The translations under genes and the position numbers were made by a program. A DNA stretch of 32,000 nt from an uncultured bacterium (GTDB lineage: Bacteria; Auribacterota; JACPWU01), in NCBI GenBank assembly GCA_964640155.1, contig CAZXEQ010000001.1, forward strand, positions 1 to 32,000, written 5' to 3'. The notes beneath the pieces were generated by a model. The model was not told the DNA's origin. It searched no databases and was given only the letters and a program-made list of their open reading frames with translations. The number at the start of each line of letters is the position of its first letter. The first letter of the stretch is position 1. Shown here piece after piece: positions 1 to 32,000 of the stretch.

Positions 1-138
1 ACTCTTGCAGTATCAGAAGGAACATCTGGTCTCACCGGTACATCTGGAGAAATTACTACATCCCCCATAGGAACATCAGGAGTAACTGCATCCACTCTTG
101 CAGTATCAGAAGGAACATCTGGTCTCACCGGTACATCT
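1..138 (-). repeat. 93-bp (31-codon) in-frame tandem repeat inside PD linker c
   Basis: Positions 1-45 and 94-138 are identical (actcttgcagtatcagaaggaacatctggtctcaccggtacatct), encoding PDVPVRPDVPSDTAR twice. The array may continue beyond the left edge. Confidence 0.85.
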
Positions 139-323: not shown

Positions 324-3300
324 ACATCCCACGAAAGTCAAAGTAGCTGCAATCAATAACGCCATAGCTCCTTTAGTCCTTGGAGCTATTGAAGTCATTT
401 CAGAAACAGAAACTCCTGTTATCTGACTTAATGCTCTAAATACTTCTTCCTTTCTTGACTCTACTCCTCTTACTCTTTCTCTCTCTTGGGCATTAATGCT
501 CTGCGATGTCTGTATGAATCTCATCACTGCTTTAAATTGTTCGTCTAACGATCTATCACTGTTCTCTACTAACAACTTTACAAATCCTTCTTCTCCTCCC
601 ATCTCTTCTATAAAGATTCTTCTCTCTTCTTCTGTCTTTCTCCTGAAATCATCTAGACTCCATAATATCGGTAATACTTCCCCATATGTCCCATGATCTA
701 TTGCTTCGTGTCCCATGACACTGGCTAATACGCTATTTGAATAGGGTCGCCCTGTTCTCTTATTATTTCTCAGTAAGTCATCATCTATCCCTATATATCC
801 CGGATTAATGACTCGCGCTATCGTGTCTCCATCCGAATATATTCCTATTCCTGTCTCTACATTCCTCATCCCGGGGTATTTTGCTATTACTGCTTCCCAC
901 GCTTCCCCTAATCTCTCTTCTTGGAAACCTGTGTATTTTCCTTCACTGATTCTACCCATTCCTGTTGGCTCTGATTGATAACCTACTTCTCCTATTTCTT
1001 TCTTCCCTGTACGTATCGGGGTGGGGCCTAAGCCTGTTAAATCTATTTCAAATCTTCCTCCTCCGGCTGGGTTTATATCAGAAGGTCTGACTTGATATTG
1101 TATTACTTGATACATTCTGTCTGAGCCCGCTGCCATTAATGTACTTGTCGCTATGCTTGAATTCCATGTTCCACTTCCAAATGTTCCGGGTCTAAATATA
1201 TACACTCCTCTACTATCTTGGAAAACAACACTAAATCCATTTAAAAGGGTAGGTACAAATTGGAAGTTGATCGCTGATAACCCTGTGGCATCTATCGGAG
1301 TCGCTCTGTATACACTTAAATACGCTACTGCTGTCGAGGTTCCTAAAGGAACATTTCCAGAAAATCTGTAAGCTCGACCCCCTATTGACGTAACACTTGC
1401 CGTTGCTCCGTCTAGTCCTCCAACAGATAAATACGTGCCAGGGAAAAATGTTGGTGAAGGTGCGGGGCCTGATCTCGTACTCCCACTTACACTCCTTGCT
1501 CCTGCAACACTAATAAGTAAGGGGGCAGGAGGCATAACATCTGGAACATCTTCTCCACTTGCATCTACACCTACTTCTGTAGGCGGTACATCTTCAACAT
1601 CTCTCACATCAATACTTGCATCCATTCGTACAACATCGGGACCTGCATCTGGACTAGGCATATCTACCCTAGGAATATCCATAGGAGTTACATCTGCGTC
1701 AGGTCGTGGAACATCCATTGAAACCGGTACGTCTTCAGGCCTTGCGTCCATGGGAACATCTATGCCGACATCCGGCCGTGCATCCGGACCGCGGTCAACA
1801 GGAAACGGCATATCAGGAGAAATTATATCTGGGGTTGCATCAGGACTACCTGCATCTAAAACATCTGTTGGCAAAACTACATCAACAGCTGCATCTGTTA
1901 CATCGGCACCAGCATCTGCTCTGGGCACAGCTGTCGGATGAGAAAGTCCACAGCTTACACCTATGAAAACTGCTAATATAGCAACAACCCCCATCACCCG
2001 GTTTGATACGCCACCTAATGTTCTCCAAAAAAGATTGGGACGTCCTATTTTAAAAATAGTTTTTGTTAATCTATTTTGTAGCTCATTCAACCCCTCTTGT
2101 AACCCCTTAAACGGGCTACCTTTTTTGAATGTAGAAATTTGTTTAAAGAAATTTCCAATTCCTCCGATGAGAAGCGTTAACCACGTCCCTCCAATACTTG
2201 CTTGACTAACCGGCCTCCTCAAATTTTTAGCAACGATATCGATTACTAAATTAGGGGCTGAAACTGCTTGCCCTCCTGTTATCTGACTTAATGCTCTAAA
2301 TACTTCTTCCTTCCTTGACTCTACTCCTCTTACTCTTTCTCTCTCTTGGTCATTAATGCTCTGCGATGCCTCAATAAATCTCATCACTGCTTCAAATTGT
2401 TCGTCCAACGATCTTTCACTGTTCTCTACTAACAACTTTACAAATCCCTCTTCTTCTCCCATCTCTTCCACAAACACTCTTTTCTCTTCAGCAGTCTTAC
2501 GCCTAAAATCATCTAGACTCCATAATATCGGCAATACTTCTCCATATGTCCCATGATCTATTGCTTCATGTCCCATGACACTGGCTATCACACTATTTGA
2601 ATACGGCCGACCTGTTCTTCTATTATCTTTTAATAAGTCATCATCTATTCCTATATATCCCAGATTAATGACTCGGGCAATCGTGTCTCCATCCGAATAT
2701 ATTCCTATTCCTGTATCTACATTCCTCATCCCTGGGTATTTTTCTATTACTTCTGCCCACGCTGCCCCTAATCTCCCTTCCTGGAAACCTGTGTATTTTC
2801 CTTCCCTGATTCTCCCCATTCCTGTTGGCTCTGATTGATAACCTGCTCCTACTTTTATCTTCCCTGTTCGTATCGGAGTTGGACCGCCAGAAACTAATCC
2901 ATTGATATCTAATTCGAATCTGCCTCCTCCAGATGGATTTACATCCGCACCACTGATTTGAATTTGTATCACCTGGAATCTTCCTGACAAACCTGCTGTT
3001 CTCCATCCTGATCCCATCACAGTTGTTGGATTTGTTCCGTACAATAAAAAATTCCAAGCACCACTTCCAAACACACCAGGAATAAATAAACCCACTTGAC
3101 CTCGATTATCTCTTAAAAATGCACGAAAGCTATCGACAAATGTTGCATAAAATCGAACATTCATGACATCACCAGTCAGTCCAGTCGCATCCATTCCAGT
3201 TGGTGACAATGCACTTAAATAAGCTACTGAATTTCCATCGCCTACTACTACCGTTCCTTCAAATCGATACGTATTTGGCCCAATCCAACGAGATGTTCTT

Positions 3301-6300
3301 ACGATTGCCCCGCCTACTCCAGCTGGTGTAAAATAGCTGTTTGAAAAATATGTTGGCATACGAAGACCACTGACTGTTTGTCCTTCAAGTCTTAGAGCTA
3401 CAGTTACAGGAATAAGCTCAGGAGCAGGAGGTGCAACATCTACTCTTGTATCTTGTGGAACATCCACCCTAACTTCTGGACCTCTATCAGTTGCAACATC
3501 TAATGCTGCATCTGGTGGCACTGGAACATCTGGTGATCTTAAAGCATCTATCGGTGTTGCTACATCCGGTGAATATGAATCCATGCTCGTTGTATCAGTG
3601 AAAACTCCTGCATCAGTAGTAGTGGCATCTATAGCTGCTACATCAGAAACTGGCGCATCAACACCTTCATCAACTGTAGGTATGTCACCACTCACGACCT
3701 CTATCGGAGCAGAGGCATCGACAACGGAAATATCTGCTGGGGGCATAGCATCTGGGATTGCTGGCATATCAACTGGCAGGCGTACATCTGATGCCGATTG
3801 ATCTACAAAAGCATCAGAAACTCCTGCGTCCGGAGTTTGCGTACGAACATGACATAAGCTCATTAAATCAAAGGAAAAACGACCTGAATCAAGAACATTT
3901 TGCGCAGGAATTTGAATTTGTATGGTTCTAAACTGCCCACTTCCTCCAGAATCTCTCACCATTCCCATGGAAAGCTCCTGAGTCCACACTCCTTCCGTCA
4001 AAGGTAAAGTCGTAGAATGATAATATCTAGAATCTCCTTTAGAACGTCTCTCAAAATCCTCTAACGCTAAAAATAAATCTCTCAGCCCAGTCTGACGAAA
4101 ACGGATATTCATTTGATCGCCCGGTAGACTTCTAGCATCCATAGGCATATCTCCCATGGAAATCGTTATATAAACTCCCGCTCCGGAAGAAATTCCCGCA
4201 TCTTGCGAAACTGGCATTTGTCCTTCTACGCGATAATGATCACCTTCTGAAATAAGTCTAGCTCTTGCACCTCCTAGCGTGGTAATTCTCACACTTGTAC
4301 CAGGAAAATAAGTAGCCGGAGTCTCTTGCCTTCTAGAAGTTTGTCCAGTTAGAGGTGATGTTCCTCTAATAGGAATAGGAGGTGGTCCATCAGTAACTTC
4401 TTCTAATCCAGAATCGGAAACTGCAGCCTCGGCATCCACACCAGTTTCTGCAGCAACACCTTCCTCACGCAAAGGCCCAAAACATCCCACAAAAGTCAAA
4501 GTAGCTGCAATCAATAACGCCATAGCTCCTTTAGTCCTTGGAGATATTGAAGTCACTGCAGAAACAGAAACTCCTGTAATCTGACTTAATGCTCTAAATA
4601 CTTCTGCCTTCCTTGACTCTACTCCTCTTACTCTTTCTCTCTCTTGCTCATTAATGCTCTGCGAGGTCTGTATGAATCTCATCACTGCTTTAAATTGTTC
4701 GTCCAACGATCTTTCACTGTTCTCTACTAACAACTTTACAAATCCTTCTTCTGATCCCATCTCTTCTATAAAGATTCTTCTCTCTTCTTCTGTCTTTCTA
4801 CTGAAATCATCTAGACTCCATAATATCGGTAATACTTCCCCATATGTCCCATGATCTATTGCTTCGTGTCCCATGACACTGGCTAATACGCTATTTGAAT
4901 AGGGTCGCCCTGTTCTCTTATTATTTCTCAGTAAGTCATCATCTATCCCTATATATCCCGGATTAATGACTCGCGCTATCGTGTCTCCATCCGAATATAT
5001 TCCTATTCCTGTCTCTACATTCCTCATCCCGGGGTATTTTGCTATTACTGCTTCCCACGCTTCCCCTAATCTCTCTTCTTGGAAACCTGTGTATTTTCCT
5101 TCACTGATTCTACCCATTCCTGTTGGCTCTGATTGATAACCTACTTCTCCTATTTCTTTCTTCCCTGTACGTATCGGGGTGGGGCCTAAGCCTGTTAAAT
5201 CTATTTCAAATCTTCCTCCTCCGGCTGGGTTTATATCAGAAGGTCTGACTTGATATTGTATTACTTGATACATTCTGTCTGAGCCCGCTGCCATTAATGT
5301 ACTTGTCGCTATGCTTGAATTCCATGTTCCACTTCCAAATGTTCCAGGTCTAAATACATACACTCCTCTACTGTCTTGGAAAACAACACTAAATCCATTT
5401 AATAGGGTAGGTACAAATTGGAAGTTGATCGCTGATAATCCTGTGGCATCTATGGGAGTTGCTCTATATACACTTAAATATGCTACTGCTGTCGAGGTTC
5501 CTAAAGGAACCATTCCAGAAAATCTGTATGCTCTACCCCCTATTGACGTAACACTTGCTGTTGCTCCGTCTAATCCTCCAGCAACCAAATATGCCCCTGA
5601 AAAAAAAGTCGGTGATGTAGCTGTTCCTGATGTCGTACTCCCACTTATACTCCTTGCTCCTGCAACGCTGATCAATGCCGGTGCTATGGGTGGTATAGCC
5701 AAAGCATCTATCTGTAAAGCAACACTTACAGTTGGACTTGTCCCACTTGTGACTTGATCTCCTCCCACTTGAACTTCAATCTGAGCTATATTTGAGGCGC
5801 TAAATCCAGAGGGTAAACTTGAAACTAATATTTCCCCACGACCAAACATACCAGGGGTTACCGTCACAGGAGCAACTCCCGTAACAATTCGTCCAGAACC
5901 ATCTTGTAATTGATAGGTTACTCTTGCAACATTGGTAACATTACCAATACCAATATGAAGTTGACCAGTCACCGCTGTGCCTGTTGTAAAATTTCTTGCT
6001 GCACCCGCTGGAATCCTATAAACCGTAATCATTTTGGATCCGGCCATTCCTCGAGTCACTGTTCCACTTGCATTCCATACAAGTCTTGATGTAGTAACAC
6101 CCGATACGGATGAAGCTGATCTTGATAAGGGTGCTGTACTCCAAGAACCTATTCCTGAGCCCCCTCCGTATCCAACTGTTTCTACAGTCACACCCGGTCT
6201 AAAATCAATTGGACCATCTACAACATTCGTAACGGGAAAGGTAGGTGAAGCTAAAGGTAAATCTGCGACAGTCAATGCCTTGGGTCCACTCAATGCTACT

Positions 6301-14492: not shown

Positions 14493-14500
14493 GTTTATAA

Positions 14501-14506
14501 CCTCTT
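14501..14506 (-). promoter_or_regulatory. Shine-Dalgarno sequence of the 14492 ORF
   Basis: The minus strand reads AAAAGAGGTTATAAAC-ATG. AAGAGG (cctctt on +) lies 8 nt upstream of the ATG. Confidence 0.6.
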
Positions 14507-14560
14507 TTATTTGAATAAGTTATATCATCATCAGCCACTAAAAAAGCTTTTAACATACAT

Positions 14561-14588
14561 AATATACCACATCAAGGCTGAAATGCAA
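14561..14588 (-). promoter_or_regulatory. Candidate sigma70-type promoter in the 113-bp spacer (TTGCAT - 16 nt - TGgTATATT extended -10)
   Basis: The minus strand reads TTGCAT TTCAGCCTTGATGTGG TATATT. The -35-like hexamer is at 14583-14588, the -10-like hexamer at 14561-14566, and a TG lies one base upstream of the -10. This is sequence resemblance only. Confidence 0.3.
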
Positions 14589-14605
14589 GTTTGAGACGCT
14601 TTTTT

Positions 14606-23600: not shown

Positions 23601-26600
23601 GAATTATACTTCATCGGCACACGGCGATGCTTTTCCAACCAGGGATGAAGAGGAGGACCATCTCGTTTCATGACAATATCTAGCCAGACAAGGGAAACAT
23701 ACGCAATGGACCAAAAAAGAATGGTAGCAGCTCCTGTCATCAAAGCTGTTAGTAAAGGACTTGAAGCAATCAAAAAAGACACCATCACACCATAAAGAAT
23801 GGCAAAGAAAAACATGAATGAGCGATGCACCAAGAAATACAAATCTATTCTTAACTCACTCCACAGAAAATCCTTTTCTCCTTCTTTTTTAATTTCCGCC
23901 TGAAAACTTTTTAAGATTTTATAAACAGTTTCTTTGCCTTGAGCTGTATAACCCGTAAGGTCTAAATCAGCATGAGACTCCACGCTTTGTTGAAATTTTT
24001 TACTTAAATGACCTTTTTTATCTAAGTAACCTGCTTTTTTTAAATCTTCAAAAATATCATTGCCTGATTTTTCCAATCCTGAAAATTTGTCTGGGGTAAG
24101 TTTTGCACTCGATTCTCGGATGCTTCTTTTCACAAAAAAGAAACCATACTTAATCACATCAAAAATAAACCTCTGATATCCTCCAGCAAAATAAAGCACC
24201 ATCGCCATAATAATGGCAAAAGTAACCAAATGAGCCAACGCAACCACACCTAATCCTAGAGTCGCACCCATACTTACCCCTAAAATCTTGGTCAACAAAA
24301 AGAGAACCAGAGGAGGAATCGCAGGAGGAAATACTATTCTCGCAAACAGATCCCGTCGAGCAATAGCTCGAGTAATAACCCAATGCAAGGGAGCCACAAT
24401 AAAAGAAGGAAGAAAAAGATTCAATACTCGAGCAACAGGACCAATCGTATAGGCCTTTCCCTTAAGGCGCTCTTTATCATAGTGAGCAAAACCCCAACGC
24501 ACGCCTACATAAATTAGAATGACAAAAGCAAAAATGCCTATAAGAGGTAAAATCCCTGATCCAATCCCACTCAACAATGTTTTAACTGCATAGAGAACCA
24601 TTTGCAAACCACTTCCAGAAACAGAAGGAGGAAGTATATCAAAGCGAACACTTAAAAATTTAAAAACGCTGACAAAGGTTCCTGGAGCAACCAATAAATC
24701 AAAAAGTTGCAGTCCTCCATAAACCAATAATAACTGTATGGCGACTTTAAAAAGACCGAATACAAACCGTGCAAGTAATTTAACTTTAGAATTTTTCGCA
24801 AAGCTTGACAACCCACTTAAGGCGCCTGTAATTAAAGAAGATAAACCAAGACCCAACCATATTTTCTTTATTGTCGCCTTACTAAAAACATACGCCTTCT
24901 CAAATCTTTCTGATGCCTGCCGCTCATGCATTTTTCTAAAATAGGTTTCTATCGCGTCATTCACCCGTTGAATCAAAAGCCGTCTTTCCATACGAGCCAA
25001 AACATCAAAACCTAAGGATTCCAAACGATTGTCAGAGGCTCTATCATATTGACCATGATGATCAATATCAGCTAAAAGGTCTTGTTCCCATCCTTTAAAT
25101 ACAAAATACATGAGAACTTGATCTGTTAATTCTTCGTTTGTCACATTTTTAAATTCTCTACTAATTCTATCAAAAGCCTCGCGCCCCCCTCCTAATCCAT
25201 TTTTAATAAACAATATTTGATCTATGGCACGATGAAGAGAAGCAAGAGTCACATTTTGACGAACCATATGTCGAGTAATGATATCAATCAACCGATCCAT
25301 TTGTTCTGACGTAATTCCTAAATTTAAACCTGAACGTTCTAATTCCATCTCGACACCCAAACGAACATTCAGACGAGCTGCTTCTCGAGCCATAAAATTA
25401 ACCCAATGATCGATTTTAGAAGCATTCTGTCCCAAATCTAAAAATGAAAATTGTGGATCTGTTGTAATCTTTCCACGAAAAGCTTCTTTGATTTGAGTTA
25501 ATTTTATCCCAGGCCGAAAAGCCTGCCCTTGAATCAAATCTGAAATGAGACGTACTTGATATTCTGTAAGTCTAGTCATGCCTGACAATCTTTCGACTTG
25601 AGCATCACTTTGGACGCTAGATTCTAAACTTCTCTGACGGGCTCGAGTTTGAATGACTTGTGAAGCAAGAAATTGAGCAAGTTCAGTTTCAACATTGGGA
25701 ACTGCTTGTCCATTTCTAGCAAGTCCCAATCTCTGAACTTGGATTCTCATCTGAACGACTAGATTTTCTCTATGACTTGGATTTGCACGTTCTCTTAGAA
25801 ATCTAATAAAAACTTCTTTTTGGCCAGAAGCAAAATTTAAATTTAATTTTTCTAATTCTACATCTACAGCTAATTCAATGAGACGTGGATCACGCAAAGC
25901 TTGATACATCATAAAATCAACCCAATGGTTGATTTTTGCAGAATCGTCTCCTAAATGCATGAACGCAAATGTATTTGGTCTAATACCCTGAGTAAACGCT
26001 TGCCTCATTTGCGCAGGGGTTGTTGCATTCATTGCAGCCTGCTCAACTTGGGCATGAATAAGATCTGTAATTGTTCTAACCTGATCACGGGTAGGTCGTT
26101 CTGCTACCACTTCTTGAGTGATGAGTTCAGATCTTACGGCATCTTCTATTTCTTCCTGTAAATGAGTCCCATCTGACCTTATTTCAATAACACGCAATGC
26201 CAAAGCGCGAGCTAAAGTCTCTTTTCTTTCATCACTCATAGATCCTTGAGTTACTGTTAGAGAAGAACCGAATGATTGTAAAATCTCCCTTTCTTCATTT
26301 CGTTCTTCATCGAACGAAGCTGAAGTTCTAACAGCATTAGCAAGAGCTTCAATTTGTTGAGTTGCAGTTAAAATAGAGTTCCCAGCAAGTGTAATCCCTC
26401 TAAAAGTAGATTCACTCAGCTTGTTACGAATGATATCTGAAATTGTTCCTAATGTTTGAACAATATCTGCATGTTGAGGAGGAGTATAAGGTTCTGCAAT
26501 CATGCCTAAATCAAGCAACCGATCTGCCATAAAAAGATTACGTCTCATATCTACAACAATTCCAAGACGTGTTTCTTCTTGCACCAACAAATCCACCAGA

Positions 26601-29600
26601 CGCATCAAATCTTGAGTGTCTCCAAAAGATAATCCTTCTCGCAAAACAGATCCCGCAATGACATCTGCAGAAGAAAATTCCATTTGTCTTCCCTGATCTG
26701 TCGGCCAATGTCGATCTCTCCACGTGTGATACACCCACATTCTATAAGCGTAGGTACGCATCACATCTACTAAAGGCATTCCTTCATCTGTCATTTTCCC
26801 GACAAAGAAACTTACATCTCCAAATTCCGACCAAAGATATCCTTCTAAGCTTAACTGGCGCACATCAGGGTTATAAATTTGTTCCATACTCAATTCTATT
26901 CCAAAAGCTTCCTGAATTTTTATTTTAAGTCTTTCTCTTAGAGCCGTTCGTGCTGCATTTTCACCTTCGCCAGGCAAAAGACGTTCTACATCAGGATTAA
27001 GAATAGGGCGACCAATAAGCTCGCTCCCAAATGTTACTCCCCTTCCGTACCTAGGAACATATCTTAAAGCTTGGAGCATACGCGTAATTTCATCCAAATG
27101 ATTCGCCATCTGACGATCTGCATTTGACCAATCTTCGGGATGATCCCATCTTATTTGCCCCACCACCGATTCAACACGTTGAATAAGTGTTTGAGCTTGT
27201 GCAGTTCCCAGCACTTGAGAAATGAAATAAAGCGAAGCTACTCTTGAACGATTCTGAAAGAAAGTGTGAATCTCAGATGCACGATCTCCCCGATCAATCA
27301 TGTGCTGAATTTCATCAAGATCTCCTTGATCCAGCATAAAGCCTGTGACAGGATCTTTCCCAAGCCCAGGCCAAAGATGATTTAAAGCAGGGACACGGTC
27401 TTGACGGGGCAAAGAGAAAATCCGAACAAGCTGCGTATCCAGTGTATCTCTGTTCGCATTTTCTCCCATGATACTTGTTCTCATCTCCCGAGCTCTTTCC
27501 CTTTGCTGCCGATCTAAGCGTAATCTATATTCTCTTTTCACTTGAGCTCGATGTTCAAACCAATCTTGCCCATGTCTTCTTGCATACACATCATCCAAAA
27601 AAAGTCGTGTATTTCTAACAACTGAAGACCCCCTAGAAACAGAAGGATCTAAAACATCTCTCAAAGAAATATCTGAATGTCCTTGTTGAGTCACACGTTC
27701 TTGATAGATAGGATCTGCAAAAATCAAAGCTACAAAACTTGACACATCTGTATCTCTTTTAACGACCAGTTTCATTTGATAAAGAATCTCTGCTTCAATT
27801 TCCCAAGCATTCAATCCTTGCTGCCGAAGACCTGTTGTTAATGAATTTCTTAAGTCTTTTTCCATTCTAACAAGTCGGACAATTTCAGCAGGCGTAGGGA
27901 AATGGCCATCAGTGATTTTCACTTGAATAAAGTATCGCCGAAGTTGAACTGAAGTAATGGGAACCCCTTCTATCTGGTTTTGAATTAAATTTCCTTCTGA
28001 ATCTATATAACGTCTCCATTCAGGGCTTTTCACCCAAACTTCACGAAGCTCAGAGAAAAAATAAGCCCTCATAATACCAACAGCATTCCCGGGAGTTCTT
28101 TCTAATTTGTTATAGGCATACATCATTTCGTTAAAATAAGTCAGCGTATAGCCCATATGAGTTTGAAGATTAGTTTGAACGTCTCGTATCCAATCAAAAA
28201 AGCGATCTACATCAGTCTCATCCCAATTTCTATCTTCCACCGCTTTTTCAAATTCAGAAAGCTCTGTAGGAGTGAGGGAAGCCCATTGAGCATTTTCAAG
28301 ACCTTGAATCTCACGGTTAAGTCTTGCGATTGAATCAGCATTCCCCTGAGCAGCCTGTATTTGTTGTCTCAAATCTGAAATTCTGTGATTTCGCCAATCA
28401 TGAAAAGCTTGAATGCTCTCTCTTTGTTTCATTAAAATATAGGCACGCATTCTAAAATTTTCACCCATTTGATAGATAGAATCACTGCCTTGTTCTACCC
28501 ACATACGAGCTACTCCCATCTCACCCTCTGGAGGATCTTCAGAAACCCATAAATGGCGTTCTCGTCTGGGAGAGAGTCTGCCCGAAGATAAATCTGTATC
28601 TTGTATATTTGGATCTATATTCCCACAAGCCCAGTGATAGGCTCGATAACTGGCTCTAATATAAGTATCGCTCTTAAAATGTTCATATATTTCCCACGGT
28701 TCTCTACGATTATCCGTAAAAGTTCTTGCAAAGTATTGAATTTCATCATTGGTTAATTGAACATTATGTGCGGCTAACTCTCGAGAAACTAAAAGCTGCC
28801 TAATAATCACCACCATTGCATAACCTTCTGGCCCTCGACTGCCCATCAGATCAATAATGGCTCGAGCCGCACTTTCATTTCCAACAATCACATTTACAGC
28901 TCTTGCATCTCTTCTTAAAATGGCTTCGAGTAATATTCGAGTTCTTACGTGAGGACCCTCACTTGGATGTACACCCCGAGCAACGTCTGCCCTAGCACGG
29001 ACTACATCTTCTGAATGAGCTGCATCAATCAAGTTTTCAATCCCTTGAAAATCAACTCTATTCATTAAAGTTACCAGCTTTTCAAGGACAGTTGTTGCTG
29101 TCACTTGATTTCCCATACCATCTTGATTAACACGTCTTAAAGTTTGTCCATCCAAAATAGTACCTAGCACTTGATTGAGATGATCTCTATCAGATACAGC
29201 TAATGCATTAGTAGCATCTTGTATTGTTTGACTCATTCCCCTTAAAAGTCTATCTCTTGACTCATGAGAAGAACGCATGACTCTGGAAATATTTGTTAAA
29301 AATCGCTTCATATAAGAATCTCCTTGCGGAGTATCTTCTATAGAACAACCATCCTTATACATTTGTTCCAAAAAGGCTCGCGTAGCCCCTTCTGTTGCCA
29401 TACTCTCCCAAAAGAGCTGTTCCCTAGGATCTTCTGCTTCCGACTGAAGTCTTCGAACAATATCTAAATAAATATTCCAGTGCCTAAAACTTTGAAGTAA
29501 TCCTCTTTCTCCTCTAACACCTGATCCCTCTTTCCAGAAATCTTCTATTCTTGAGAGAAGAGTAAATCGTATATCTTTGATCTCTCTGGCTGTAAGAGTT

Positions 29601-32000
29601 TCTCTAGGCTCATGCTTAAATTCTATAATTTGTTCAATAACAGCTTCAGACCCTGAAATTCGTCGCCCCATTTGACGTATTTCCTCATCTGATTTATCCT
29701 GAAAAACAATATATCGAACCATATTAGCTGCGGTTGCCCTATCGCCTTTACTTATCAAAAATTGAATAAAATTAATAATAACCGTATCATCCGTTAAAGC
29801 ACGTCTAGCCGTTTCCAAAAAATCTGTCATTTCGACATCGGGCATATTGTGAACAATCTGACGATCAGCAAAATAAAAAAGAGTTCCCATTTCCTCTTGA
29901 TTATTGTCATCGATACTGCCAGATACTGAAATACCCATTGCTCTCATAAAGCCACTCATTGCATCATTTCTATGAAGTGCTTGCATTTTTTCAAAAACTG
30001 CTCTGAACTGTTCTGGACGTGCATCAACCGATTCTGCTAGACGAACCCAAGAAGATAAAGCGCCTATATCCCGCGAAGAATCCAAATCTAAATGACCATA
30101 CAGGACTTCCACAGCACTTCGAAAACGTTCAAGTTTATCTAACCAGGCACTTAGCTTTCTGGCTAAATCTTCAGGAGTATCATTGGCATCTTTTAAATAA
30201 TTCAAAGCAAAGTTTGCCCAAGCCACATCCCGAGCCATCGAAACACTTTCTCTTGAGAGCTGCATAACAGCATTTGCCTGAGCAATATTTCCCAATGCTC
30301 TCCAATAAGCAAGACGAGCCGTATCTCTTACTCTTATCTGCCCATGATAAAAACGATTTACGCGTGAATGAATAGCGCTTACCACCTCTCCTAAAGTCTC
30401 GATTGAAACCCCCTGAGGGCGAGATCGTACATACGTATCCCAAACCGTCAAGTACCCCTGAGAAGCATAATTCTCATTAAATTGACGTGATGCTCCTGTC
30501 ACTTGACTATAAAAACCAGCCAAAGGACCTCTCATCGCATTTCGACCTTGACTTCTCTCCCCATCTGAAACCTTTTGAAATTCTGCATTAAAAACTCTTT
30601 GTCTAAAAAGTCTGTCATGATAAGCCAATCTTCTTAAATCTCTTATCGTTGGATCAACGTTTGCAGCTTCCGCAGGTTGTAAAACGGGAGAAAGCATCGC
30701 CCCTTGAGGAAAACCTTCTGTCACAGAACGTCTATGAGCAACATTTGAAATTCCCCTAAAAAGAAGGGAATCATGTTCAATGTGCTCTCGTAAAGCAGCA
30801 TCTGCCATAGGATGCTGCATTAAAAAAAGAGCATAATAACTAGCAAGACCTAAAAACTTTAAATTAACTCCCGCCCCAATATCACGATTAGAAAAAAGAT
30901 CTAGAGTTTCCATAGGAATTAAGGCTTCAAAAGAATTGGCCAAAAAATCTGGAAGAGGACTCCCTGATAACGCCCCACTTCTTAAAAGAGGAATGACCCG
31001 ATGAATATTTGAAAAATAGGTTTGCATATCAGACGCAGACATATTCCTAGACCGAGCATAGCGATCAAAAACAAGAGTCCAATCATTTAAATTCATGACT
31101 CTGCCATCACCCACAGCAGCTCCTAAACTATTCAAAACCCCAGAAACCGCACCTCCTGAAACTAAAGATGGAGAACCTCTCATATGTCGAACATGAGGTC
31201 TTAAGCTAAAATCCCTTAAAAGACTTAACAAAGATCTTACTTCTGTGCGTGTCGCAGCTTGTCGACGTGCATAATCACGCTCTAGTTCTGCCAATCTTCT
31301 TTCTCGAATTCTTGAATCATCTTCTCTTCTTGCTTCTCGTTCATGCCATTCATCTTCAATAGCGCGTTCTCTGGCCGCTTCTCTAGATCTCCATCGTTCA
31401 ACAGACAAAGCACGATCCGAACGTCGTCGCTCAGCATCTTGTCGTGCTAATTCATTATGTTGTTCAACATTCCAAAAGGGAAAAGCATGACCATCCCATC
31501 CCGTACCAGATCTTGCTGTCAAATCGACTCTTTCATAATCCTCCTCAGGAACAACAACCGCTTGAGGAAGCTGAAGACGTGATTGACTGAGAGCCTCTAA
31601 AATTTGTCGTCCTCTTTCTAAAGTAGTTTGTCCCGATCTTAGATGAAGGTGAGGATTTGGACGAGGGGCAGGAATTTCAACATGTTGATCTCGTCGAACT
31701 TGTGCCCTTAAAACAGGATCTAATGCTTGACCCAATTCAGCCATTGTATGAATTGGATTTCTCCGATTTGGAAGATGAGTCTGTACTTGCGCTCTAAAAG
31801 CCGGGTCGGAAAGCGTATGATCTACATAATCTCCAGGATTTGCTCCTAAAGCTTGAGCTAAAGCGAGCAAACCCATCGCATCATTCAATGCAACTGTTCT
31901 TCCAACAACTTCACTTCTTTCTAAATTGACTGCATCTACCCAGCCCAAATTAGTATGATAAGCAGGCAGCTGCGCTTGAGTTGCCCCATGATCCGCTGTG
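14606..32000 (-). CDS. Giant polytopic membrane protein, 5'-partial (5,797 codons inside the window); helical Arg-rich N-terminal part, four hydrophobic helix clusters, Lys-rich middle region, C-terminal HExxH region
   Basis: ORF track lists 14606..31948 (5,780 aa), with the TAA stop at 14606-14608. The TTG at 31948 is only the first start-like codon inside the window. Read codon by codon, the same frame is open from 31949 to 31999 (TADHGATQAQLPAYHTN-L-GWVDAVN...), so the real start lies beyond the right edge. The other ORFs listed in this span are short, in other frames or antisense. Confidence 0.9.
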   Translation of the reverse strand, partial: TADHGATQAQLPAYHTNLGWVDAVNLERSEVVGRTVALNDAMGLLALAQALGANPGDYVDHTLSDPAFRAQVQTHLPNRRNPIHTMAELGQALDPVLRAQVRRDQHVEIPAPRPNPHLHLRSGQTTLERGRQILEALSQSRLQLPQAVVVPEEDYERVDLTARSGTGWDGHAFPFWNVEQHNELARQDAERRRSDRALSVERWRSREAARERAIEDEWHEREARREDDSRIRERRLAELERDYARRQAATRTEVRSLLSLLRDFSLRPHVRHMRGSPSLVSGGAVSGVLNSLGAAVGDGRVMNLNDWTLVFDRYARSRNMSASDMQTYFSNIHRVIPLLRSGALSGSPLPDFLANSFEALIPMETLDLFSNRDIGAGVNLKFLGLASYYALFLMQHPMADAALREHIEHDSLLFRGISNVAHRRSVTEGFPQGAMLSPVLQPAEAANVDPTIRDLRRLAYHDRLFRQRVFNAEFQKVSDGERSQGRNAMRGPLAGFYSQVTGASRQFNENYASQGYLTVWDTYVRSRPQGVSIETLGEVVSAIHSRVNRFYHGQIRVRDTARLAYWRALGNIAQANAVMQLSRESVSMARDVAWANFALNYLKDANDTPEDLARKLSAWLDKLERFRSAVEVLYGHLDLDSSRDIGALSSWVRLAESVDARPEQFRAVFEKMQALHRNDAMSGFMRAMGISVSGSIDDNNQEEMGTLFYFADRQIVHNMPDVEMTDFLETARRALTDDTVIINFIQFLISKGDRATAANMVRYIVFQDKSDEEIRQMGRRISGSEAVIEQIIEFKHEPRETLTAREIKDIRFTLLSRIEDFWKEGSGVRGERGLLQSFRHWNIYLDIVRRLQSEAEDPREQLFWESMATEGATRAFLEQMYKDGCSIEDTPQGDSYMKRFLTNISRVMRSSHESRDRLLRGMSQTIQDATNALAVSDRDHLNQVLGTILDGQTLRRVNQDGMGNQVTATTVLEKLVTLMNRVDFQGIENLIDAAHSEDVVRARADVARGVHPSEGPHVRTRILLEAILRRDARAVNVIVGNESAARAIIDLMGSRGPEGYAMVVIIRQLLVSRELAAHNVQLTNDEIQYFARTFTDNRREPWEIYEHFKSDTYIRASYRAYHWACGNIDPNIQDTDLSSGRLSPRRERHLWVSEDPPEGEMGVARMWVEQGSDSIYQMGENFRMRAYILMKQRESIQAFHDWRNHRISDLRQQIQAAQGNADSIARLNREIQGLENAQWASLTPTELSEFEKAVEDRNWDETDVDRFFDWIRDVQTNLQTHMGYTLTYFNEMMYAYNKLERTPGNAVGIMRAYFFSELREVWVKSPEWRRYIDSEGNLIQNQIEGVPITSVQLRRYFIQVKITDGHFPTPAEIVRLVRMEKDLRNSLTTGLRQQGLNAWEIEAEILYQMKLVVKRDTDVSSFVALIFADPIYQERVTQQGHSDISLRDVLDPSVSRGSSVVRNTRLFLDDVYARRHGQDWFEHRAQVKREYRLRLDRQQRERAREMRTSIMGENANRDTLDTQLVRIFSLPRQDRVPALNHLWPGLGKDPVTGFMLDQGDLDEIQHMIDRGDRASEIHTFFQNRSRVASLYFISQVLGTAQAQTLIQRVESVVGQIRWDHPEDWSNADRQMANHLDEITRMLQALRYVPRYGRGVTFGSELIGRPILNPDVERLLPGEGENAARTALRERLKIKIQEAFGIELSMEQIYNPDVRQLSLEGYLWSEFGDVSFFVGKMTDEGMPLVDVMRTYAYRMWVYHTWRDRHWPTDQGRQMEFSSADVIAGSVLREGLSFGDTQDLMRLVDLLVQEETRLGIVVDMRRNLFMADRLLDLGMIAEPYTPPQHADIVQTLGTISDIIRNKLSESTFRGITLAGNSILTATQQIEALANAVRTSASFDEERNEEREILQSFGSSLTVTQGSMSDERKETLARALALRVIEIRSDGTHLQEEIEDAVRSELITQEVVAERPTRDQVRTITDLIHAQVEQAAMNATTPAQMRQAFTQGIRPNTFAFMHLGDDSAKINHWVDFMMYQALRDPRLIELAVDVELEKLNLNFASGQKEVFIRFLRERANPSHRENLVVQMRIQVQRLGLARNGQAVPNVETELAQFLASQVIQTRARQRSLESSVQSDAQVERLSGMTRLTEYQVRLISDLIQGQAFRPGIKLTQIKEAFRGKITTDPQFSFLDLGQNASKIDHWVNFMAREAARLNVRLGVEMELERSGLNLGITSEQMDRLIDIITRHMVRQNVTLASLHRAIDQILFIKNGLGGGREAFDRISREFKNVTNEELTDQVLMYFVFKGWEQDLLADIDHHGQYDRASDNRLESLGFDVLARMERRLLIQRVNDAIETYFRKMHERQASERFEKAYVFSKATIKKIWLGLGLSSLITGALSGLSSFAKNSKVKLLARFVFGLFKVAIQLLLVYGGLQLFDLLVAPGTFVSVFKFLSVRFDILPPSVSGSGLQMVLYAVKTLLSGIGSGILPLIGIFAFVILIYVGVRWGFAHYDKERLKGKAYTIGPVARVLNLFLPSFIVAPLHWVITRAIARRDLFARIVFPPAIPPLVLFLLTKILGVSMGATLGLGVVALAHLVTFAIIMAMVLYFAGGYQRFIFDVIKYGFFFVKRSIRESSAKLTPDKFSGLEKSGNDIFEDLKKAGYLDKKGHLSKKFQQSVESHADLDLTGYTAQGKETVYKILKSFQAEIKKEGEKDFLWSELRIDLYFLVHRSFMFFFAILYGVMVSFLIASSPLLTALMTGAATILFWSIAYVSLVWLDIVMKRDGPPLHPWLEKHRRVPMKYNSMVYLPYLPNSVKVSNEAVHSLFEDFWNNVSKVQIVCRVDGDQKKFDMICPDGTKKEDVSLFSINRRLRTRILALQDGENLEIPDPRDHQKLVIFNQSPDNNVVGSELALIEEFMDKVGDDRVIWEHRNRKNAEVPEDKVRFGKKWGSMYDDFLLMQLKHEHPTCYTADVLDKREKLEGVTFDVHGRKCELLKFDPLNRYGLRERRVLKVNGKVINDDVHFENHWYLYKDGEKTPSYEILEGELYPVNLQDGRVTRGDKIASTLDFEFKNGKLIDFNTGEPLKVLKDLDKDASFVMGQEDTIDRLTFKDENGNDYKLYIDFEGNTRFLEDHAFLTNGKKGAIFSRKGAHSLGFIYDLYKIEGEGERRNVTRVKEKVRILDQTFQAHEKEGKLSYKVVSVNEYKETENGRHLAEGDFISPSGDVVKYMEVPIIKGKYECEEWKEGGKIIIDTLAPREFILEIEKDDAGNLKNPPGFFVVYLDKEDETNKNNRRKIGPFRVATRDDLKKISKPVKDAGEGKCVLIDEKGTLIFKEDKKTAGKWNVSSGKGFFLVEEIVLTKDNFESMGLDDQDIKELLIDLTKSGYLENGIVQKSFKVLKKPADIKFNDSKFNTREFEEHKDEIFRILQWASQGKLVSDGNTYVRGEFDGADLRRQDPLIQMIKVEQDALQKAATHFKAEWGKLLTEKAFADEIKEVSNIQEALRNIWSKHLYNHISAQELEEVLDAVLEIKDFSSLSPNDQRDHFLSMFAKIRIQRIGQQGDYGASYHLHRGKTGDETHYFINIKPEEMAAWEDKEFPGRVVVKKKVGDTVQHGFLVNEKDGFHVFTQTELAEAQARGDIFDNVEVGGLAYRTVIQKDGQWVQKWIRVAAKNDFGALKSKEDESTRLITRDAKRVKKTDLAYLDLKGMNLDSLWQALIDAKYINVKGELTEKFKGLNKASELDLNGVKDSKLKRDLFEILHRSQDILMGKEGQPGSGLFYLYDSDGNKIVDLLDEQVEPDRCVQFAHQMDGGDTYLPGTHVYLSSVMAAEQELGNNFTLFVPTIVNLNKGENTFATGQQTAGERLFSTVEIVARIFKRNGKPLFTSFGKGSWSIHRAINNIIIKTFTRANQLSHDHTEGVGGKATLIINSWQYLGRYAEDAPASFLFMLARIVRWRFGDFLIQEIVNPLWKVSKNLAEGVWKPGGVKKAAEAIIKEEHEPRIGHLVTWFNLQGIVNDPLFLLWTGASAISAVTPGTRELSRAVLSNWLYTVVFLMLLGVTYVIRPIAIRIWKEPSRTRKEFWWKGIRNTVTFLGSIGAGLAVGSLFIGKWGIVMKSAIAFAGASVKLLPILGPKIAHLLIILNGLVFGSGSTFLLVSPWAFLIASVPYIIPIILFLSFTKLGRDILQIIKSGIGLVFWSTLTLLLNLWVLSIMIIQVAELYFNKGVLVWTPGPEVNNFFGEIVVSKINIFKMFMKTVIPALIIIGLTVAGIIPFSLFAMAYPVILSWLIGPLAVWWTTYQGRSREFHKPLILPEERLAENIFNYKEATLSEEDEEVKVNASSTNGSVSEQIKTIEGFKTRVKKVAKQFDLDERDTLRLYLDKPYLLARQEIKEVLRVLAFEEIQPSHLTQLTERLNTLRDKWEKATPGAKIPRLKEEDVKKLLGQFEGITFEEEHLRAWVRSLCKMYGFSPWFQDRLVEWTWMQLETQRKQLIPEFFTWRHYAELKYKFAWWWNGTRYKKSKEQRQKLEDLAERVMYRDTHTRFWKDPLATTFSLSDRWKLRFKIAKRFFSSLGDPAASYYKVFDKDKKSPRRMFFKEYLERNILGENKENLWANWKIVKEGAWIVSLVMFLYGWAASFGIKGALVYAGASILTPLKYMGVLYVAYHVWNFCFKRSDEFWENLENERRQEILKDLGFVAKDIQFLKDLGIDIPEATPPVKQPGVVPPVAPSIPGGGGVSSEAKSGVKAEKPAEKTAEEKLKERVVTLINNAERRIFDRSDNPIKSADEEKVGRALSRLDVAQAHLETALEAIPEGKDVLAVFADVQHEGEQMKLVDRAWAESARAIIQARFGVIKDLRSRWEARLAKVKPASEPEAPAEPKAPLGDVSISGVGASVETVTGADLGGAKTETQTEATPRSSPTPEDAQEALFKKNVVEPVDAAQKILLYLVKPEDASEDDITESFGSLAKAEELFTGARDALRDIFSDWSGQTRVQDLQRAIREGLEEIQNRRELFRKRLKELSPEPESPEPVPTPQALSAERPAPATPVVRDAAINITDKPLPEEPAAPERRDSPPPEPEAAEPADLTSADLEDDDEPASEAATPADMSSAAETPIRSLDAISGDIEVLRARVEQLSESESVEAILPALRAEYDKLEAELNRLGEKGKDTYNDDLKPLGEIISIYEAEYSALFLTFSETNFEWPQRIEEVVFDRVTLNRSKTAWNAVPDNRGRAHYALLIEQALKNVQERVKGTSLESYWNDVISRAENQNVVIKVSNNIPVNSLRTVEKGQTVIYLQEAFVRQLLEDDSTYHDVVIHLLGERLFHELGHTNKADSFDDKKEEEVTQIKRDVEYQKEVVLINAALKTKIDAYFSDHITGKHPRFASGTYFVWIQFLATDSEEISKGRPTISEYVGELYPSNVRGVAKERVRLANFKRFRRYILGLRLAQAQRQNQTQKLVSSIVKAVPEFLQEITENEIADLLQTSIAHFLNRDELGLEDNRTLADLIQKTIKSLQSDEMTLNDLREKVRKIVEVRAAEEKRRKRARSEEYHHNEEATLAMEQGVLGGLLQMASFMRGKSFSSEDLAQIIFGVDETVDGLMGNMPLVELISYFDEVHPARELQTSGLVSIDPYFEAIKNLKSGRTQDGLTILEGMNQDAKISKPLHQLVRKTISRIILLQKNGKIQVAGKTLKLSSDVAEIVKDLRQISHCFYIDFVGAGNISVQYFEVALEMILTRSIADLEKGVDIARLEDGSVVKVVKEGDVLRLGIYRKSSLNLVSDRSDMDGEIRREAWIGTAA
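16016..16030 (-). other. HExxH motif (HELGH, ORF B track residues 5307-5311)
   Basis: cat gaa ttg ggc cat is the reverse complement of atggcccaattcatg. The context is TVIYLQEAFVRQLLEDDSTYHDVVIHLLGERLFHELGHTNKADSFDDKKEEEVTQIKRDVEY, with an acidic run 8-14 aa downstream. Confidence 0.5.
16660..16940 (-). repeat. Pro/Glu/Ala/Asp-rich low-complexity linker in ORF B
   Basis: SPEPESPEPVPTPQALSAERPAPATPVVRDAAINITDKPLPEEPAAPERRDSPPPEPEAAEPADLTSADLEDDDEPASEAATPADMSSAAETP. Its antisense strand produces the shadow ORF 16497..16901(+). Confidence 0.8.
17228..17410 (-). repeat. Pro/Glu/Ala/Thr-rich low-complexity linker in ORF B
   Basis: KVKPASEPEAPAEPKAPLGDVSISGVGASVETVTGADLGGAKTETQTEATPRSSPTPEDAQ. Confidence 0.8.
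17735..17868 (-). repeat. Pro/Gly/Ala/Lys-rich low-complexity linker in ORF B
   Basis: EATPPVKQPGVVPPVAPSIPGGGGVSSEAKSGVKAEKPAEKTAEEK. Confidence 0.8.
17990..18139 (-). other. ORF B hydrophobic cluster 4 (about aa 4604-4653, 2-3 TM helices)
   Basis: The sequence is AWIVSLVMFLYGWAASFGIKGALVYAGASILTPLKYMGVLYVAYHVWNFCF. Confidence 0.6.
19119..19950 (-). other. ORF B hydrophobic cluster 3 (about aa 4000-4277, roughly 9-10 TM helices)
   Basis: The segments are FLLWTGASAISAV, WLYTVVFLMLLGVTYVI, VTFLGSIGAGLAVGSLFIG, IVMKSAIAFAGASVKLLPILG, IAHLLIILNGLVFGSGSTFLLV, PWAFLIASVPYIIPIILFLSF, GIGLVFWSTLTLLLNLWVLSIMIIQVA and VIPALIIIGLTVAGIIPFSLFAMAYPVILSWLIGPLAVWW. Confidence 0.7.
20714..20881 (-). repeat. 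GY[LI]-KF motif unit 3 (ORF B aa 3690-3745)
   Basis: NLDSLWQALIDAKYINVKGELTEKFKGLNKASELDLNGVKDSKLKRDLFEILHRSQ. Confidence 0.5.
21713..21892 (-). repeat. GY[LI]-KF motif unit 2 (ORF B aa 3353-3412)
   Basis: DIKELLIDLTKSGYLENGIVQKSFKVLKKPADIKFNDSKFNTREFEEHKDEIFRILQWASQ. Confidence 0.5.
23675..23854 (-). other. ORF B hydrophobic cluster 2 (about aa 2699-2758, 2-3 TM helices)
   Basis: The sequence is LRIDLYFLVHRSFMFFFAILYGVMVSFLIASSPLLTALMTGAATILFWSIAYVSLVWLDIVMKRDG. Confidence 0.7.
23894..24058 (-). repeat. GY[LI]-KF motif unit 1 (ORF B aa 2631-2685)
   Basis: DIFEDLKKAGYLDKKGHLSKKFQQSVESHADLDLTGYTAQGKETVYKILKSFQ. It lies in the loop between hydrophobic clusters 1 and 2. Confidence 0.5.
24125..24865 (-). 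other. ORF B hydrophobic cluster 1 (about aa 2362-2608, roughly 7-9 TM helices)
   Basis: The segments are KIWLGLGLSSLITGALSGLSSF, LLARFVFGLFKVAIQLLLVYGGLQLFDLLVA, GLQMVLYAVKTLLSGIGSGILPLIGIFAFVILIYVGV, VARVLNLFLPSFIVAPLHWVI, IVFPPAIPPLVLFLLTKILGV and MGATLGLGVVALAHLVTFAIIMAMVLYFAGG. Confidence 0.7.
25313..26092 (-). repeat. Internal tandem duplication in ORF B (two units of about 173-175 aa, about aa 1953-2039 and 2128-2212 for the conserved cores)
   Basis: Unit 1: TRDQVRTITDLIHAQ..AQMRQAFTQGI..FAFMHLGDDSAKINHWVDFMMYQA..LAVDVELEKLNLNF. Unit 2: TEYQVRLISDLIQGQ..TQIKEAFRGKI..FSFLDLGQNASKIDHWVNFMAREA..LGVEMELERSGLNL. The K-I-[ND]-H-W-V codons lie at 25910-25936 and 25391-25417, an offset of 519 bp. 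Confidence 0.75.

Follow-up and report, generated by a model that had tools for sequence, protein, structure and literature searches.

Two giant genes and their junction

The window analyzed here, the first 32,000 nt of contig CAZXEQ010000001.1 (GenBank assembly GCA_964640155.1) from an uncultured Auribacterota bacterium, is occupied by two giant genes, referred to below as gene A and gene B, and our comparisons connect A with the glucan synthases OpgH and Cgs and B with a widespread family of predicted exported proteins. All long reading frames of the window lie on the minus strand, which was left unstated in an earlier note that had correctly recognized two adjacent, co-oriented and incomplete giant genes. 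Gene A (14609..31999, minus strand) is stop-free from position 31999 over 5,797 codons and ends at a TAA stop at 14608-14606, and gene B (3..14492, minus strand) comprises 4,830 codons from an ATG start at 14492 that is preceded, 8 nt upstream, by AAGAGG. Together they amount to 10,627 codons, and no other gene was found beside them in the window. Both window ends cut through genes, A at its N-terminus and B at its C-terminus. The two are separated by a spacer of 113 bp (14493-14605, minus strand), and a hairpin scan found no terminator-like hairpin in it, as had been reported.

The probability of such stop-free runs arising by chance is 10^-186 for A and 10^-155 for B at p(stop) = 0.071 per codon; the full-length reading frames of the window contain 439-735 stops each. 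The GC content drifts from 0.35 to 0.45 along the window, which raised the suspicion of a chimeric assembly. Given that GC at third codon positions (GC3) is 0.20-0.32 everywhere, with 0.13 only in a 30-codon terminal fragment of B, and that Arg and Leu codon choices are alike in all segments of A and B, the drift reflects amino-acid composition, and a chimeric contig, about which the earlier note had cautioned, was rejected.

A scan of one genome per species returned a single relative, a 16.9-kb contig from a Candidatus Auribacterota metagenome-assembled genome (JAYRIK010000164.1, hereafter L001). On this contig an A orthologue is represented by its C-terminal 3,074 residues and, after it, a B orthologue by its first 1,558 residues, and the contig aligns to A 2708-5783 and then B 1-1520 at about 85% identity. 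The A-to-B junction is independently confirmed by L001, which covers B to residue 1520; past that residue B is represented by the window contig alone. Between the window and L001, A 2701-4700 shows 90-99% amino-acid identity and A 4701-5797 shows 36-79%. Both open reading frames (ORFs) are under purifying selection, with dN/dS values of 0.09-0.12 over A 2701-3400 and A 3601-4700, 0.10-0.17 over B 1-1236 and 0.10-0.29 over B 1-1520; in the last 1,100 residues of A they are higher, at 0.39-0.60. Both giant genes are real, are maintained by selection and belong to a Candidatus Auribacterota-type bacterium. Synonymous divergence (dS) is uneven along the alignment, at about 0.2 in A 2701-3400, A 3601-4700 and B 1237-1520 and 0.5-0.8 in A 3401-3600, the A C-terminus and B 1-1236, which suggests recombination between lineages inside A and B.

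The gap between A and B in L001 is 777 bp long (L001:9224-10000) and holds, directly after the stop of A, an ORF of about 90 residues of GIY-YIG type (MSQWKWYVYIIECLDGTYYTGC...) that is not in the window. Several copies of a repeat (GTTCTCGAC...CTCGAACAGTA...CTTCGAGCGAGTGCAACGAGTCGAGAAG) flank this ORF, and the two together resemble a small mobile element. Immediately upstream of the ATG of B, ~113 bp are conserved between L001 and the window spacer, and they carry TTGC(A/T)T-N17-TATATT (TTGCAT in the window) with a TG-N extended -10, a putative promoter that we read by eye; a sigma-70 consensus scan of the spacer called no promoter. Given that the spacer is conserved downstream of the inserted GIY-YIG gene, B probably has its own promoter and would not require co-transcription with A, which the earlier note had raised for checking and which we consider doubtful.

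The OpgH/Cgs-like core of gene A

The most conserved part of A, a core spanning approximately residues 2386-4320, is, on profile comparison, homologous to OpgH/MdoH and to the glycosyltransferase (GT) domain of Cgs/NdvB, membrane-embedded enzymes (GT2/GT84) that use UDP-glucose to make beta-1,2-glucans. A HMMER search with A 3561-4760 against 1.84 billion cluster representatives returned three proteins only, P0004 (776 residues, E 9e-14, the closest distant relative of the core), P0005 (1,448 residues) and P0006 (1,867 residues), and none of them received a family assignment, apart from a faint similarity of the P0006 C-terminus to MdoH. The A family was then compared by hhalign, profile to profile, with an OpgH alignment made of the E. 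coli K-12 protein and eight plasmid-borne homologues (32-56% identity). The C-terminal part matched with Prob 93.6% and E 2e-7 (A 4189-4313 to OpgH 606-721), pairing VWTP with VWNS and PLILPEE with LFLIPEE. A permissive extension placed A 3768-4326 collinear with OpgH 266-738, the C-terminal half of the GT domain corresponding to OpgH 345-500, and paired QMDGGD with LDADS, FATGQQ with YARCQQ, LSHDHTEG with LSHDFVEA and RIVRWRFGDF with RDRRWCHGNL. The N-terminal half of the GT domain matched separately (A 2884-2928 to OpgH 273-318, Prob 57%, E 1e-4), and reversed-sequence controls gave E values of 0.1-0.8 (0.36 for the C-terminal part and 0.8 for the N-terminal half). In a profile search of the PDB with the A core, Cgs/NdvB proteins were the sole matches (E 7e-6), through two collinear stretches, one over the half of the GT domain that holds the HD and RW motifs and the other over the membrane part at the C-terminus (Cgs 877-991).

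The layout of the core follows the same order. A first cluster of hydrophobic helices, called from hydropathy (A 2386-2790, 23630..24844), precedes the N-terminal half of the OpgH-like GT domain (A 2795-2960, 23120..23617), which contains FNQSPDN, VIWEHRNRKN and GKKWGSMYDDF. A Lys-rich, beta-rich insertion of about 840 residues (A 2961-3800, 20600..23119) splits the domain, and P0005 and P0006 have an insertion at the same position. The C-terminal half (A 3801-3975, 20075..20599) holds QMDGGD at 3806, FATGQQ at 3852, LSHDHTEG at 3910 and RIVRWRFGDF at 3949, and it is followed by a second helix cluster (A 3976-4320, 19040..20074) with VWTP at 4226 and PLILPEE at 4307, all on the minus strand. 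The helices at 2400-2780 and 4040-4280 flank the catalytic domain, and the C-terminal bundle is homologous to the C-terminal membrane part of OpgH and Cgs.

In Cgs, D527 and D624 are ligands of uridine diphosphate (UDP), D739 is the catalytic base and R773 lies in the RW motif (PMC10901819). The catalytic-base and RW motifs are kept in A (LSHDHTEG 3910-3917 and RIVRWRFGDF 3949-3958; sHDlLEg and RqhRWarGD in Cgs). The DxD motif (D624/D626 in Cgs) is altered in A, where QMDGGD, compared with LDADS of OpgH, keeps the first Asp and displaces the second, and the Asp of the OpgH "LSD" aligns with the Gln of FNQSPDN; P0004 and P0005 retain the DxD. Catalytic activity of A is plausible, judged from these motifs, and not assured.

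OpgH and Cgs are, by sequence, the closest characterized enzymes to the A core. The three share the order of helices, GT-A catalytic domain and helices, and the collinear motifs SHDxxE(A/G), E..P....RW..G(D/N), Q(Q/T) and W-(T/N)-(P/S), with a PEE tail behind the final helices; Cgs, too, is a very large multi-domain membrane synthase, of about 2,800 residues. A differs from both in exceeding 5,797 residues, in the ~840-residue insertion within its catalytic domain, in having DGGD in place of the DxD with the first UDP-binding Asp unaligned, and in being missed by the curated GT2 and MdoH models. Unlike Cgs it has no GH94 phosphorylase or cyclase domain, and unlike OpgH it has no OpgG or OpgD neighbour in the window. 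A core of this type that is split by an insertion and embedded in more than 5,800 residues is, as far as the sequences tell, new. It points to polysaccharide synthesis and away from attack.

The contigs of the distant relatives were also inspected. P0004 lies on a contig (CAYOMG010000133.1) where it is cut by a run of N, and given that a fragment upstream of the run (…QGFVVNQKDGFWF…) resembles A around residue 3620, the true P0004 is longer than 776 residues. Next to the OpgH-like genes of P0005 and P0006, another large gene lies upstream and a gene for a signal-peptide protein downstream, and none of these neighbours resembles the A flanks or B.

Over the whole of A, about 20 hydrophobic segments were called from hydropathy, and they group at 2400-2780, 4040-4280 and 4621-4680. 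The earlier description of A as a polytopic protein with 20-25 helices in four clusters holds insofar as A is membrane-embedded with about 20 segments, but the clusters number three (four if the first is split) and A is not uniformly polytopic. The region upstream of the core (A 1-2385, 24845..31999, minus strand) is Lys-depleted and Arg/Glu-rich, with a K/(K+R) ratio, the share of Lys in Lys plus Arg, of 0.15 and no family match. The downstream region (A 4321-5797, 14609..19039, minus strand), of approximately 1,480 residues, consists of a Trp-rich helical part that includes a two-helix hairpin at 4621-4680 (A 4321-4690), a P/E/A-rich low-complexity linker (A 4691-5150) and a faster-evolving C-terminal domain (A 5151-5797). 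This last domain contains HELGH at 5324-5328 (window 16016-16030), the single HExxH of A, which is conserved in L001. With 0.2 such motifs expected by chance, the HELGH is within chance expectation and statistically unremarkable, and it stands about 470 residues before the C-terminus. The proposal that A is a mere platform ending in an HExxH region does not survive these results, given its OpgH/Cgs-like core.

The flanks of the core, more than about 2,400 residues upstream and about 1,480 downstream, have no detectable relative in the sequence searches made. A word-indexed search of 5.8 billion proteins with A 798-5797, a metagenome scan with A 1-700 and a sequence search of the PDB with A returned no match, and Pfam and NCBIfam assigned no family to whole A or to ten tiles of it. 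Two internal similarities were observed in A. Residues 1968-2057 and 2143-2228 (window 25829-26098 and 25316-25573) form a duplication of about 90 residues with 38% identity (E 2e-14). In addition, a motif of about 55 residues, ..L..AGYLD..G.L..KF.......LDL.G......hF.IL...Q, occurs once in the first helix cluster (2636-2705) and twice in the ~840-residue insertion (3367-3436 and 3701-3770; window 23885-24094, 21692-21901 and 20690-20899), with pairwise z-scores against shuffles of 3.3-5.5.

The N-terminal module and distal units of gene B

The B protein begins with a Sec-type signal peptide, read from the sequence (B 1-33, 14394..14492, minus strand; MGQSTFKNKPLRKFISFLTAFTFLITSLPVQG, followed by LE), and family members show equivalent N-terminal hydrophobic segments. 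Behind it lies a conserved module of about 480 residues (B 51-530, 12903..14342, minus strand), the only part of B with relatives in the 5.8-billion-protein collection. Those relatives are three matches of 23-31% identity in which the module is always N-terminal on a large protein with epimerase, 'VWA' or ARMT1-like domains. With a seven-sequence module alignment, a metagenome scan yielded at least 384 relatives. We read 80 of these loci, and the module stands at the N-terminus in every ORF with a readable 5' end. These ORFs range from stand-alone proteins of about 520-560 residues to ORFs still open after 3,850 residues. The cargo recognized by Pfam in 17 long members is most often PGM/PMM (7) or GPI/PGI (3), and UDPGP, GT2, protein kinase and cNMP-binding domains occur one or two times each; epimerase, ARMT1 and Metallophos domains are found in other members. 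The module family is widespread and apparently undescribed, no description of it having been found in a limited literature search, and it provides a handle to classify hundreds of metagenomic proteins, whose lengths run from 520 residues, in stand-alone forms, to over 3,850, many with a PGM, PGI, UDPGP or GT2 domain. On one 24-kb contig (L002, from Logan SRR28093593), three neighbouring large genes each start with a B-type module (3936->1 on the minus strand, 4321-9864 and 10001-16219 on the plus strand; more than 2,553, 1,847 and 2,072 residues) and differ in cargo (Metallophos, ARMT1-like). The family expands by local duplication with cargo swapping.

Across 77 module sequences, D85-x-H87, Q93, E118-G119, R457 and GGFH 478-481 (B numbering; D36/H38, E69, R408 and G429-H432 in alignment numbering) are invariant. 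An AlphaFold2 model of the module (predicted local distance difference test, pLDDT, 83; predicted template modelling score, pTM, 0.67) has a small alpha/beta core and a helical insert of about 290 residues. The paired GxxH, Glu and Arg recall a pattern that we take to be that of the Tiki/TraB/ChaN superfamily. The ChaN profile PF04187 was matched by 19 of the 77 members, with a best E of 0.0011 and an E of 1.2 for B itself. In a Foldseek search with the model, the helical insert accounted for most of the matches and none reached significance; the only alpha/beta-core matches in the PDB were ChaN 2g5g (E 3.5) and RRSP 5w6l (E 3.8). The hhalign comparison of the module with TraB/GumN aligned the RD...GxxH stretch at a nonsignificant E of 0.2 (reversed control 0.51). 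The module resembles Tiki, TraB, GumN, ChaN and erythromycin-esterase proteins in an early xDxH, an invariant Glu, RDxxxxxN, a late GGFH and an alpha/beta core, and it differs in its ~290-residue helical insert, in its constant N-terminal position behind a signal peptide on possibly giant proteins, and in that no comparison was significant. From its sequence, the module possibly belongs to the Tiki/ChaN superfamily.

Further along B lies a UDPGP-like nucleotidyltransferase domain (B ~740-1135, 11088..12275, minus strand), the sole match when Pfam and NCBIfam were run on 20 tiles of A and B. The UDPGP profile (PF01704) scored 46.9 bits over B 932-1075, above its Pfam gathering threshold of 22 (E 2e-12; positions 149-289 of the 413 in the profile), and there are weak matches to solved UDP-glucose pyrophosphorylases. 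The match covers the central part of this eukaryote-type family, with NTNxF and GG..S.M-like motifs recognized by eye. Compared with the known enzymes, about a third of the profile is matched, and the domain appears embedded in an exported giant protein. The description of B as an exported array of enzyme-like modules is upheld as regards export and this domain, but enzyme-like character is shown for one module only. B is a clear new instance of cytoplasm-type sugar-nucleotide enzymes behind signal peptides.

The distal part of B begins with a transmembrane (TM) helix at 1237-1255, an Arg-rich segment and a long hydrophobic segment ending at Cys1553 (B 1237-1553, 9834..10784). Four tandem, beta-rich repeats of about 195 residues, 36-94% identical, follow (B 1953-2750, 6243..8636), and then three copies of a unit, here called unit X, that combines a beta-sandwich with an HEAIDH domain (copy 1, B 2935-3322, 4527..5690; copy 2, B 3700-4088, 2229..3395; copy 3, B 4321-4708, 369..1532), all on the minus strand. 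The three HEAIDH motifs are HExxxH and not HExxH, and hhalign found no homology between the HEAIDH units and the HELGH domain of A (E 0.38). A word-indexed homology search with B 1256-3340 returned no relatives, and the AlphaFold model of the beta-sandwich and HEAIDH unit was unusable (mean pLDDT 55, and 25-30 for the HEAIDH part). The protein identity of copies 1 and 3 is 95-99%, and their DNA is 94.5% identical over 1,218 bp (321-1540 versus 4479-5700), including an exact run of 545 bp, and they differ by 30 synonymous and 22 non-synonymous codons. This likeness points to recent duplication or gene conversion, and the exact run leaves a small risk of mis-assembly there.

B has six Cys in 4,830 residues. 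One lies in the module motif QDMHC, and four of the remaining five directly follow a hydrophobic stretch with Arg or Lys in front of it, giving lipobox-like sites that read ...AILMEA before C1553, PRTKGAMALLIAATLTFVG before C3337, NRVMGVVAILAVFIGVS before C4181 and PRTKGAMALLIAATLTFVG again before C4723 (Cys codons at window 9834-9836, 4482-4484, 1950-1952 and 324-326). C3337, C4181 and C4723 fit the lipoprotein pattern of a charged n-region, an h-region and [GAS]-Cys, and C1553 is less canonical. The corresponding signal-like segments are B 3313-3337 (4482..4556; (V)TSISPRTKGAMALLIAATLTFVG before the Cys, with an in-frame GTG at residue 3313), B 4150-4181 (1950..2045; ...NRVMGVVAILAVFIGVS) and B 4699-4723 (324..398; MTSIAPRTKGAMALLIAATLTFVG, with an in-frame ATG at residue 4699), all on the minus strand. 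With 20 lipobox-like positions among the 4,830 of B, the placement of the Cys is non-random (P about 1e-6 or lower, allowing for two of the four sites being paralogous). After each lipobox Cys comes a linker, which is P/D-rich in the case of C3337, C4181 and C4723, and then come beta-rich domains, and the HEAIDH domain is present in three of the four units behind such a Cys. No internal lipobox was found in 17 other long module-family members, and a limited literature search found no description of internal lipoprotein signals in giant proteins.

The distal part of B looks, on these features, like several lipoprotein genes joined in frame. The internal signals could serve polyprotein processing, internal initiation or plain anchoring. 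Simple topology models are in conflict with them, given that a single hydrophobic segment after an exported domain cannot take the signal-peptide orientation. We considered that B might be a recent in-frame fusion or an assembly artefact that unites a B-family gene with tandem lipoprotein genes, with internal starts or partial decay. The Cys at lipobox-like positions and their absence from other long family members fit this explanation, as do the internal start codons, given that the ATG at residue 4699 would yield a canonical lipoprotein precursor (MTSIAPRTKGAMALLIAATLTFVGC), that the paralogous site has GTG and that GGAG lies nearby. The 545-bp exact run could also mislead a short-read assembler, and no independent contig represents B past residue 1520. 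However, the frame stays open over 14.5 kb and across all junctions, which implies selection for read-through. GC3 and codon use are uniform, and the codon differences between copies 1 and 3 of unit X mark them as distinct loci and not a collapsed repeat. The spacing from the Shine-Dalgarno sequence to the internal starts is also poor, at 2-3 nt or 14 nt. We regard a fusion or artefact as decidedly unlikely.

Proposed envelope glucan synthesis and its alternatives

We lean, on balance, toward the explanation that A is a giant OpgH/Cgs-type glucan-synthase fusion and B an exported, anchored giant of its family, and that together they form an envelope glucan or glycan system. A would polymerize glucose from UDP-glucose at the inner membrane, B would supply or handle nucleotide sugar and carry membrane- or lipid-anchored units, and the pair would make up a system for the synthesis and display of an envelope glucan or glycan. 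From the comparisons above we infer that A is catalytically active and makes a glucan, that A and B are functionally coupled, and how the two proteins are placed relative to the membrane. All soluble domains of Cgs are cytoplasmic (PMC10901819), and by homology the large soluble parts of A next to the membrane would likewise face the cytoplasm and not the surface. This corrects the earlier picture of A as an envelope-embedded platform.

Several observations weigh against an envelope glucan system. Given the degenerate DxD (DGGD) and the Gln at the first UDP-binding Asp, the A transferase may be inactive or may use another donor. The Pfam GT2, OpgH and MdoH models and the NCBIfam MdoH model found no match at E<=1 in the A tiles or in A 2780-4320, and no OpgG, OpgD or Cgt-type partner is visible within the window. 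The UDPGP-like domain of B lies behind a predicted Sec signal peptide, where uridine triphosphate (UTP) is not expected, so it may not feed A. The GIY-YIG gene parts A from B in L001, so their co-expression is not required. The earlier note had proposed to check conservation of the pair; the junction is present in L001, but no A-like gene was found within 10 kb of 83 other, more distant B-module loci, no OpgH-like genes were found near other B-module genes at the loci examined, and none of the three distant A relatives is followed by a B-like gene. In addition, more than 70% of A and B has no assignable function.

These last observations bear on whether A and B belong together at all. They could be functionally unrelated, very long neighbours, as the probable promoter of B, in a 113-bp spacer kept downstream of the GIY-YIG gene, and the absence of the pairing outside the close relative would allow. 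The junction is nevertheless conserved in the only relative available, a segmentation into Lys-poor and Lys-rich stretches is common to both proteins, and both touch UDP-glucose chemistry. An unrelated pair is, in our judgement, the least probable of the explanations considered here.

Neither protein belongs to a usual class of giant gene product, as the earlier note had said, given that no nonribosomal peptide synthetase or polyketide synthase, RTX or immunoglobulin-array families were found in A or B by Pfam (whole proteins and tiles) or NCBIfam, and most of both proteins is without relatives detectable from sequence. The analogy that the earlier note drew with other giant genes was well placed. 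Auribacterota is grouped with Omnitrophota in the PVC superphylum (PMC12057145), and Omnitrophota and other PVC bacteria encode giant proteins with signal peptides and scattered TM helices that are mostly without identifiable domains (10.1101/2023.11.21.568195; 10.64898/2026.06.07.730766). Metabolic Pfam domains that are predicted to be extracytoplasmic in giant proteins are a documented puzzle (10.64898/2026.06.07.730766). The Omnitrophota giants with signal peptides or TM helices ('archaeovorin-type'; West-Roberts et al. 2023; Nielsen & Lui 2026) are the nearest published analogues. They come from a related candidate phylum, and A and B resemble them as ORFs of several thousand residues with a signal peptide and/or scattered TM helices, largely unannotatable and with N-terminal regions without known domains; B further resembles them in its cytoplasm-type metabolic domain behind a signal peptide. 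The headline cases differ in length (30,000-147,000 residues, compared with at least 5,797 for A and at least 4,830 for B, both cut by the window). In the 10,627 visible residues Pfam found none of the domains reported as hallmarks of those giants, neither SecA_DEAD or SecA preprotein-binding, which most of them have, nor an N-terminal C39 or S8 peptidase, nor dockerin/TSP3, GT, MT, glycoside hydrolase or NUDIX domains, and beyond the N-terminal module of B no sequence homology to the 5.8-billion-protein collection was found. Giant genes of Omnitrophota-like candidate phyla are a recognized class that is almost entirely unannotated, and A gives it a concrete biochemical core.

Omnitrophota giants with many TM helices or signal peptides have been interpreted as parts of predatory or epibiotic cells (10.1101/2023.11.21.568195; 10.64898/2026.06.07.730766), and we considered a surface weapon or attachment apparatus of this kind here, in which A would anchor the structure and B would display hydrolytic Tiki-like and HEAIDH modules. 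The kinship of the two phyla, the signal peptide and several membrane or lipid anchors of B, the recurrent weak ChaN/Tiki matches of the module (in 19 of 77 members) and its two alpha/beta-core Foldseek matches, to ChaN and to the toxin domain RRSP, are all consistent with it. The fast-evolving A C-terminus (dN/dS 0.4-0.6) is also consistent with it, and approximately 6,000 Lys-depleted residues might suit an exposed or delivered protein. However, only one part of A can be assigned clearly, and that part is biosynthetic and, by homology, cytoplasmic, and Pfam and NCBIfam found no glycoside hydrolase, peptidase, adhesin, dockerin or SecA_DEAD family. Membership in the Tiki superfamily was not significant (E 0.2 for TraB/GumN and above 3 in Foldseek), the HEAIDH unit could not be modelled (pLDDT 25-30), the HExxH of A is within chance, and nothing positive supports a surface-weapon role. 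We consider such an apparatus unlikely.

The segmentation shared by A and B is seen in their Lys and Arg contents. K/(K+R) is 0.15 in A 1-2385 (window 24845-31999), 0.66 in A 2386-3990 (20030-24844), 0.65 in B 34-1236 (10785-14393) and 0.16-0.29 in B 1256-4830 (3-10727), where it remains at 0.16-0.22 through residue 4705 and reaches 0.29 in the last 106 residues. In each protein the ratio changes where the first membrane elements lie, with GC3 and codon choice the same on both sides. Lys makes up only 1-2% of about 6,000 residues of A and B together, although the genome is AT-rich. Domains that need cytoplasmic substrates are held by the Lys-rich segments, and the segmentation may mark compartment or exposure, a reading that conflicts with the signal peptide of B. 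Together with the internal lipoprotein-like signals, it offers a way into the insertion and processing of giant envelope proteins. One explanation would join the two features: B, and perhaps the many regularly TM-studded giant proteins of Omnitrophota-like bacteria, would be a secretory polyprotein in which complete secretory or lipoprotein precursors are made as a single chain. Its internal signals would be lipidated and cut by Lgt/LspA, or act as anchors in series, so that several envelope-tethered units result; the Lys-poor N-terminal 2,400 residues of A would be exported, and A and B would build and decorate a glucan surface layer. We give it a slender chance. The switches between Lys-poor and Lys-rich stretches would then mark the segments that end up outside the cytoplasm.

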